DNA of 8,189 nucleotides from Escherichia coli (lineage in GTDB: Bacteria; Pseudomonadota; Gammaproteobacteria; Enterobacterales; Enterobacteriaceae), in the NCBI RefSeq assembly GCF_003334305.1, contig NZ_QOWS01000044.1, one strand, 5' to 3'. This document shows, piece by piece, positions 173 through 479 of this stretch (position 1 is its first letter; each line of letters begins with the position of its first letter). Both the position numbers and the translations under genes were made by a program. A model generated the notes under the pieces. That model saw only the letters and a program-made list of their open reading frames with translations. It was not told where the DNA came from and ran no database searches.

Positions 173-479
173 AAACCCGCCGGAACGGTTTATTACGTAC
201 ATCAGGTGAAACTGACCGATAAGCCGCTTTCTTTTGGGTATAGCGTCGTGGACAGTCATTCATCTTTCTGCCCCTCCAAAAGCAAAAACCCGCCGAAGCG
301 GTTTTTTACGTAAACCAGGTGAAACTGACCGATAAGCCGCTTTCTTTTGGGTATAGCGTCGTGGACAGTCATTCATCTTTCCGCTCCTCCAAAAGCAAAA
401 ACCCGCCGAAGCGGGTTTTTACGTAAATCAGGTGAAACTGACCGATAAGCCGGGTTCTGTCGTGGACAGTCATTCATCT
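173..479. repeat. Tandem ~113-bp direct repeats in the rnpB 3' flank (units at 173-285 and 286-398; third unit from 399 is the genuine rnpB terminator and 3' end)
   Basis: Unit start aaacccgcc recurs at 173, 286 and 399 (period 113). Units share caggtgaaactgaccgataagccg and gtcgtggacagtcattcatct, which are the 3'-terminal sequences of rnpB. The two distal units are about 93% identical to each other by eye. Repeats in this flank are described in the literature. Confidence 0.85.
391..420 (-). terminator. Intrinsic terminator of rnpB
   Basis: On the minus strand, just 3' of the mature rnpB end: stem CCCGC / GCGGG with a UUCG tetraloop (plus-strand 402-415), followed by a U-run (plus-strand A-run 391-401). 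Confidence 0.75.

Follow-up and report, generated by a model that had tools for sequence, protein, structure and literature searches.

The window, by which we mean the whole 8189-bp stretch of Escherichia coli DNA that was analyzed, was found by sequence comparison to be 100% identical to E. coli O104:H4 str. 2011C-3493 and shows the gene order agaR-yhaV-prlF-garD / garPLRK-rnpB. The prlF-yhaV toxin-antitoxin pair (7216-8015) and the gar operon fill the part of the window not discussed below and are ordinary, annotated genes. The rnpB gene lies on the minus strand, and a series of repeat units is located downstream (3') of it, toward decreasing coordinates. Between rnpB and the neighbouring IS621 transposase gene, the O104:H4 record contains no RefSeq annotation at all. 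The features of this region, read in the direction of transcription, are as follows.

814-842, minus strand: sigma-70-like rnpB promoter (GTGACA-17-TATACT; promoter scan, 10/12 matches), just upstream of the RNA 5' end at 806

430-806, minus strand: rnpB, encoding M1 RNA (RNase P RNA class A); Rfam RF00010, 318.6 bits, full model 1-367; annotated in NC_018658.1

430-479, minus strand: G, the genuine 3'-terminal 50 nt of M1 RNA, delimited by unit alignment, motif positions and the Rfam structure line

421-429, minus strand: 9-nt spacer from G to T1 (RNA-sense layout)

397-420, minus strand: T1, predicted intrinsic terminator of rnpB (AAAAACCCGCUUCGGCGGGUUUUU), core stem-loop 402-415; -19.4 kcal/mol, z -5.3 (RNA-sense fold)

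379-396, minus strand: linker L1 (GCUUUUGGAGGAGCGGAA), 18 nt, read from the sequence, holding the GGAG that precedes the repeat ORF start

317-378, minus strand: PSI1, pseudo-3'-end 1; P2 and P1 strands as in the gene, 12-nt insert, CC>AG in the P4 strand

340-357, minus strand: middle segment of PSI1, GCUAUACCCAAAAGAAAG, replacing AGAACC of the gene (exact match, 0.01 expected by chance)

284-307, minus strand: T2, weaker hairpin (289-302) followed by UUUUUGCUUUU; -13.0 kcal/mol, z -2.7

266-283, minus strand: linker L2 (GCUUUUGGAGGGGCAGAA), read from the sequence

204-265, minus strand: PSI2, pseudo-3'-end 2, composed as PSI1, with its middle segment at 227-244 (alignment and motif positions)

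173-203, minus strand: terminal degenerate spacer and hairpin remnant T3 (AAACCGUUCCGGCGGGUUUCAG), hairpin 176-190; -4.4 kcal/mol, z +1.2

260-376, minus strand: 38-codon repeat ORF (MNDCPRRYTQKKAAYRSVSPGLRKKPLRRVFAFGGAER) from the ORF list, judged non-coding

162-263 and 373-477, minus strand: sister repeat ORFs from the ORF list, judged non-coding

Tandem Repeats Finder reported a single array at 173-452 with a period of 113, 2.5 copies, 94% matches, no indels and a score of 504, and a repeat search returned three 113-nt copies at a spacing of 113/113. An earlier note on this DNA had described tandem units of about 113 bp carrying rnpB 3' motifs, and this was borne out: motif caggtgaaactgaccgataagccg occurs exactly at 203, 316 and 429 and motif gtcgtggacagtcattcatct at 245, 358 and 459, both are absent elsewhere in the window, and both of these M1 3'-terminal motifs are 100% identical in all three copies. 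The same note counted three units from 173, 286 and 399; the spacing is correct, but the unit at 399 is mostly the real gene end rather than a repeat copy. The array thus consists of the genuine rnpB end and two pseudo-units, with the homology among units ending at 479. Alignment of the units to the gene end further supported the proposal that they are duplications of the rnpB 3' end together with its terminator.

The copied segment G comprises the P2 3' strand, J2/4 with the P4 3' strand (AGAACCCGG), and the P1 3' strand. In the pseudo-ends, the P2 3' strand (21 nt) and the P1 3' strand (24 nt), each with flanking bases, are unchanged, and the differences are confined to a 12-nt insertion after ...CCACGAC and to AGAAAGCGG in place of the gene's AGAACCCGG. 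As the window is written, this appears as the 18-nt ctttcttttgggtatagc at 227-244 and 340-357 in place of the gene's ggttct (0.01 chance matches expected), so that the indel noted earlier between the two motifs is indeed present in both pseudo-units. A search for the origin of this 18-nt middle segment found no further copy in the window. In RNase P RNA, residues C353-G357 make up the 3' side of helix P4 in the catalytic core. Given the established RNase P structure, the insert and the changes in the P4 strand would leave a pseudo-end unable to serve as a working 3' end, and it could presumably not replace the real one. At the gathering score of RF00010, the pseudo-units fail and only 430-806 passes, while at a permissive threshold the flank gives one truncated match of 17.4 bits.

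On its distal side, the array is bordered by a REP element (GCAGGATAAGGCGTTCACGCCGCATCCGGCA) at 112-150, which lies between the array and IS621 and gives a sub-threshold naRNA4/REP match of 31.4 bits. Positions 1-73 fall inside the right end of IS621 (IS110 family), with the transposase gene just beyond the window and the junction near 60-80. The element is inserted in the REP adjoining the array, where ...ACAGTATC meets TACGCC, and K-12 reads uninterrupted ...ATCAGGCCTACGCC at this place. We take the ATCAGGCCTACGCC string at the insertion site to be the canonical IS621 bridge-RNA target (ATCAGGCCTAC) and the end of the element to be the donor (ACAGTATCT).

The array as such is already known and ordinary for E. 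coli: Reed and Altman reportedly described repeats of 113 bp downstream of the K-12 rnpB gene in 1983. The window shares with the K-12 repeats the locus 3' of rnpB, the strand, the 113-bp tandem period, the content of each unit (M1 3'-terminal homology, a terminator-like hairpin and small ORFs) and nearly the same sequence. K-12 NC_000913.3 3269846-3270686 aligns with window 173-900 at 97.7% identity, in agreement with the earlier statement that the repeats are not new, and the alignment is split into two pieces because K-12 carries one extra unit. The window differs from K-12 by having one unit fewer (two instead of three), by a point change in the second hairpin that lowers its stability, and by IS621 in the adjacent REP. 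A paper on rnpA49 suppressors deals with large IS-flanked amplifications and not with the rnpB 113-bp repeats.

Within E. coli, the array changes by whole units between strains. K-12 MG1655 contains three pseudo-ends, the window two and CFT073 none, and a search of 5426 complete E. coli genomes with a unit query matched 3677 genomes at 1-8 places per genome (median 2) and left 1749 without a match. This variation by whole units fits the earlier suggestion that the repeats are a substrate for homologous recombination. In CFT073, only 'AAGATGAAT' is left after T1 and the start of the linker. The same junction recurs in the E. coli metagenome contigs L097 and L125, where it survives as a distal remnant on the far side of the REPs, and the state of CFT073 is therefore read as a deletion derivative.

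Tandem or fail-safe intrinsic terminators are known after highly expressed stable-RNA operons, as exemplified by rrnB T1-T2. The rnpB flank resembles this type in that a strong GC-rich hairpin with a U-tract, directly after a highly transcribed stable RNA gene, is followed by at least one more hairpin with a U-tract; it differs in that the additional terminators were duplicated along with the gene end, vary in number and finish with a copy that is presumably dead, and in that K-12 transcripts seem to get past the array all the same. Our promoter/terminator scan missed T1 and T2, probably since an extension of the stem absorbs the U-run, and the hairpins were folded directly instead. Judged by a GC-rich stem-loop followed by a U-tract, T1 is a predicted intrinsic terminator and T2 a weaker one, whereas T3 (173-194) does not qualify, as it has neither a stable stem nor a U-tract and is followed by UUUCAGAUUG. 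T1 is accordingly expected to work as a terminator, T2 may act as a backup, and T3 is presumably dead. Hence, of the redundant terminators proposed in the earlier note, a single extra one is plausible in T2 but not in T3, and the array supplies at most one backup terminator in this window. T1 also folds on the plus strand with a U-run (-13.9 kcal/mol, z -3.4) and, judging from this fold, could act in both directions; together with T2, it might form a bidirectional barrier against the convergent yhaC side. The array is missing from 1,749 of the 5,426 complete E. coli genomes as well as from a number of genera, so that any role it has as a terminator is dispensable.

The weakening of the hairpins with distance from the gene (-19.4, -13.0 and -4.4 kcal/mol) does exist in this strain but does not hold as a rule, since K-12 has the same strong hairpin three times in succession before a last one that is degenerate as in the window. 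The gradient is specific to the strain and composed of one C>A change, which opens the stem of T2, and of an old terminal unit, whose T3 end is identical throughout the examined E. coli arrays of the K-12 type (K-12, the window and several metagenome contigs). Progressive decay is not what this gradient shows.

To follow the repeats beyond E. coli, one genome per GTDB species was scanned with the genuine P1 strand as the query, which is unbiased as to the pseudo-end. Extra copies were found in E. whittamii, three Escherichia clade genomes, E. albertii (truncated), Citrobacter sp. R56, Citrobacter sp. Awk 4 and K. pneumoniae ATCC 13883. The same scan gave no extra copies in six Kluyvera species, Kosakonia, Intestinirhabdus, Enterobacter sp. 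kpr-6, and S. enterica subsp. arizonae and diarizonae. Three more cases came from mislabelled chromosomal records in plasmid and phage collections. S. enterica Senftenberg NCTC10384 (L135, NZ_LN868944.1, locus 1289-2070) has six pseudo-units, each 108 or 116 nt long, with two types of terminator in alternation, the longest array among the genomes named here; the record, labelled a plasmid, is actually a 728-kb piece of chromosome. K. aerogenes retains only a vestige with a truncated P2 strand, and in S. houtenae (a mislabelled chromosomal record) no pseudo-end was found. Finally, a metagenome scan with a pattern specific to the pseudo-end yielded 106 loci, spread over many lineages of enterobacteria and built of units 107-129 nt long, a set that is by its ascertainment biased toward the pattern used as the query. 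In the Citrobacter sp. Awk 4 locus (L010, ~5930-6075), an insertion of roughly 150-190 nt with long terminal inverted repeats (CTTAGC...TAACACCGTTAACTTAAGC / GCTTAAGCTAACGGTGTTA), MITE-like in appearance, lies between a pseudo-unit and a further truncated pseudo-end.

The rnpB gene is 98-99% identical across the enterobacterial genera compared, too similar for assigning a taxon by it. Every extra copy carries the insert, and none of the fetched loci has a second, insert-free end. Across lineages, two marks define the pseudo-end: an insert of 11-13 nt lengthens J2/4, and the P4 3' strand is substituted at one or two positions. In Klebsiella, the insert measures 11 nt, and a single P4 substitution is the only other departure from the real end. 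The middle segments of E. coli and K. pneumoniae are identical at 16-17 of 18 nt, compared to roughly 60% in the flanks, although its 3' half is variable in Klebsiella-type lineages (AAAAGAACG, AAAAACCCG, AAAAGCACG). The crippled pseudo-end is old and common to Escherichia, Salmonella, Klebsiella and Citrobacter. The term "decayed", which had been applied to the copies, does not fit: their motifs are identical to the gene, and the insert and the P4 change are a fixed hallmark in Salmonella, Klebsiella, Citrobacter and other Escherichia.

The comparison also bears on the open reading frames. The repeats could encode small basic peptides, as ORFs of 33-38 codons are present at 260-376, 162-263 and 373-477, with an AUG inside AGAUGAAUG, GGAG(G) before it and AUGA overlaps; in E. 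coli, the AUG is preceded by a GGAGG at a distance of about 9 nt, and some annotations label the repeat ORFs as hypothetical proteins. However, the AUG is part of the copied M1 sequence, the terminator hairpin falls inside the ORF, and an SD-like sequence is absent in several lineages. The frame is shifted between lineages by 1-nt changes (a captured core of 10 to 12 nt; CACGAC>CACAC in E. albertii and locus L014), and because of these length differences only about nine N-terminal residues are common to the repeat ORFs. The unit lengths of 107, 108, 113, 116, 118, 121 and 129 show no multiple-of-three pattern. RefSeq leaves the ORFs unannotated, and the databases contain sporadic hypothetical calls but no named family. 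A protein-coding small ORF was rejected, with neither frame nor peptide conserved among relatives, and we regard the peptide reading as exceedingly improbable.

Partial 3' copies of a stable RNA downstream of the intact gene are also familiar from tRNA and tmRNA genes, where they are left by integrative elements, and the pseudo-ends might be attL/attR-type scars of elements that target the rnpB 3' end in the same manner. Indeed, the flank past the array is highly variable, with yhaBC, REPs or IS621 depending on the strain, and the distal breakpoints in the last pseudo-end differ. Furthermore, in E. roggenkampii NZ_CP109732.1 (L136/L141/L142), lambdoid tail genes follow directly after the rnpB 3' end (...CTTCTAAAAC joined to AATACG), with no terminator between. 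That record, however, is listed as a plasmid of 90.9 kb but holds infB, nusA, ftsH and further genes of the chromosome. It is a chromosomal chimera, and its junction may mean that rnpB truly serves as an att site there or may have arisen by misassembly at the repeat. In contrast to the repeats at tRNA and tmRNA genes, the rnpB copies follow each other at about 100-130 bp, without intervening element DNA or a neighbouring integrase, and contain a conserved internal insertion. No true phage with a pseudo-end or rnpB end was present among 50,697 phage records, neither pattern matched the IMG/VR viral contigs, and the plasmid matches were mislabelled chromosome pieces. Matches to Acinetobacter 'phages' were discarded as host contigs containing rnpB. 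Adjacent copies that enclose no mobile DNA, along with the lack of any phage or viral contig bearing the sequence, do not correspond to att-site direct repeats, and we consider an origin as integration scars very unlikely.

Each pseudo-end was also compared with the gene of its own genome. Terminator types vary by lineage, including a short type with a UUCG loop (Ta), a longer CCAGYGYAAAC type (Tb) and others. The terminators usually match within a genome; some arrays are mosaics, and this mixing of Ta and Tb within arrays points to recombination. In lineages whose real P1 strand is 1-4 nt off that of E. coli, the pseudo-end shares the variants of its own gene in nearly every case. Its P1 strand mostly differs at 0-2 positions from its own gene and mostly at 2-5 positions from E. 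coli. At the level of sequence, this indicates that the pseudo-end evolves in concert with the real 3' end.

Considering the observed anatomy, the unit-wise copy-number polymorphism, the presence across genera and the concerted evolution, the locus is most likely the known rnpB 3'-flanking array, which arose from an ancient duplication of the gene end with its terminator and has been resized by unequal recombination or slippage. The duplication would have copied the last 50 nt of rnpB, the intrinsic terminator and a short U-rich linker, and the copy bears the insertion in J2/4 and the substitution(s) in the P4 3' strand. G and the pseudo-end still have 21 and 24 nt in common, along with terminator and linker, providing a substrate for exchange. 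Unequal sister-chromatid exchange or replication slippage, between gene end and pseudo-end or between two pseudo-ends, may add or remove units of about 101-129 bp, and exchange would keep the P1 strand and terminator of the pseudo-end identical to the gene of the same genome. If crossovers take place in the ~70-90 nt of P1/terminator/linker homology, they would resize and homogenize the array, while the insert would never move into the gene or out of the pseudo-end. We thus infer a recombination mechanism behind the resizing of the array.

This crossover geometry accounts for the insert staying linked to the pseudo-end but not for the conservation of its sequence. The middle segment has no template in the gene and is nevertheless better kept than linker and spacers, which a neutral array does not predict. 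Because this conservation is left over by the crossover geometry, a modest probability has to be assigned to a function of the pseudo-end as RNA or DNA. One such reading holds that the pseudo-end is a selectively maintained RNA element arising from T1 read-through or internal initiation. The proposed RNA would mimic the 3' strands of P1 and P2 of M1 without being able to form P4, would bring its own hairpin, U-tail and A-rich (ARN-like) tract, and could pair with the nascent M1 5' strand or titrate C5, RNase E or Hfq, like a sponge derived from a 3' trailer. In line with this, the insert-bearing form has been kept across genera with its unique middle segment conserved above linker and spacers, the P4-breaking GCGG was never 'repaired' to CCGG in any copy seen, and several lineages have a distinct terminator type for the pseudo-end (Ta after the gene end G, Tb after the pseudo-end). 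An A-rich tract and a terminator U-tail, which are relevant features of 3'-derived sRNAs bound by Hfq/ProQ, are present in the sequence of the pseudo-units.

In favour of such an RNA, published data for K-12 show that transcription reaches this region. DirectRNA-seq counted 11200 reads downstream versus 30653 upstream of the rnpB end (PMC7815308 supplementary file 2), and minus-strand transcripts extend past the array (PMC7815308) into a region that ends at K-12 3269111, antisense to yhaC, with 2111 reads in the 800 nt upstream (PMC7815308 supplementary file 2). The position 3269111 on the minus strand is listed as a termination region on the rnpB strand with a Rho-score of 2.35 (PMC7815308 supplementary file 2). 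This implies that a sizeable transcript runs out of the repeat array in K-12. Since the minus-strand coverage continues beyond the whole array, either the terminators in series let some transcription through or there is a transcription start within the array. Our promoter scan, however, found only the rnpB promoter and no promoter-like site inside the array, and Term-seq called only the mature rnpB end at 3270216 and no 3' end inside the array (PMC7815308).

Structure prediction likewise argued against a selected RNA. In an RNAalifold analysis of 16 diverse units, 0 of the 16 predicted pairs were compensatory and uncompensated breaks occurred, leaving only invariant pairs and the terminator, and the stability of the unit RNA did not exceed that of shuffled sequence (z +0.52). 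With no compensatory changes and no unusual stability, the unit does not qualify as a structured non-coding RNA. Searches of Rfam returned no family match but only terminator look-alikes. Additionally, the 3' half of the middle segment varies in the Klebsiella-type lineages mentioned above, the array is missing from about one-third of E. coli as well as from Kluyvera, Kosakonia and three Salmonella subspecies, and retention of the insert is expected from the crossover geometry alone, too. In papers on RIL-seq, CLASH and TRIC-seq, RnpB comes up only in general terms. Trailer RNAs of the 3'ETS-leuZ type would be the closest analogy for a functional RNA, being likewise located downstream of a stable RNA and ending in a terminator hairpin; in contrast to 3'ETS-leuZ, accumulation or target pairing of a pseudo-end RNA is only hypothetical. 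A selectively maintained RNA element is consequently an unlikely, albeit not negligible, explanation of the pseudo-end. Just as doubtful is the related claim that the pseudo-end is an ancient, selected mimic of the M1 3' end, kept at least in Escherichia, Salmonella, Klebsiella and Citrobacter, produced by read-through of rnpB, dead in P4 and co-evolving in P1 and P2 so as to pair with the M1 5' strand or titrate C5, RNase E or Hfq, and that it might thereby influence folding, 3' processing or abundance of RNase P RNA. The resizing of an ancient duplication by recombination or slippage thus remains our preferred reading.

The locus may be of wider value in one respect, the comparative one: several genera of enterobacteria share a crippled copy with a diagnostic insert, and this copy changes together with the true end of the gene. 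Should selection be responsible, and not the geometry of recombination, the formation or control of RNase P RNA would involve a layer that has gone unrecognised. In practical terms, the array is an unannotated repeat of variable copy number that breaks short-read assemblies and can mislead read mapping at the M1 3' end. Many metagenome contigs (L031, L033, L046, L055, L059 and L096 among them) begin or end within it, and the array appears to be a common breakpoint of short-read assemblies. Enterobacterial rnpB 3'-end/pseudo-unit sequence was also encountered on low-coverage contigs of 264-289 bp in the assemblies of Microvirga antarctica (L012) and Alkalicoccobacillus porphyridii (L016), where it is almost certainly contamination.
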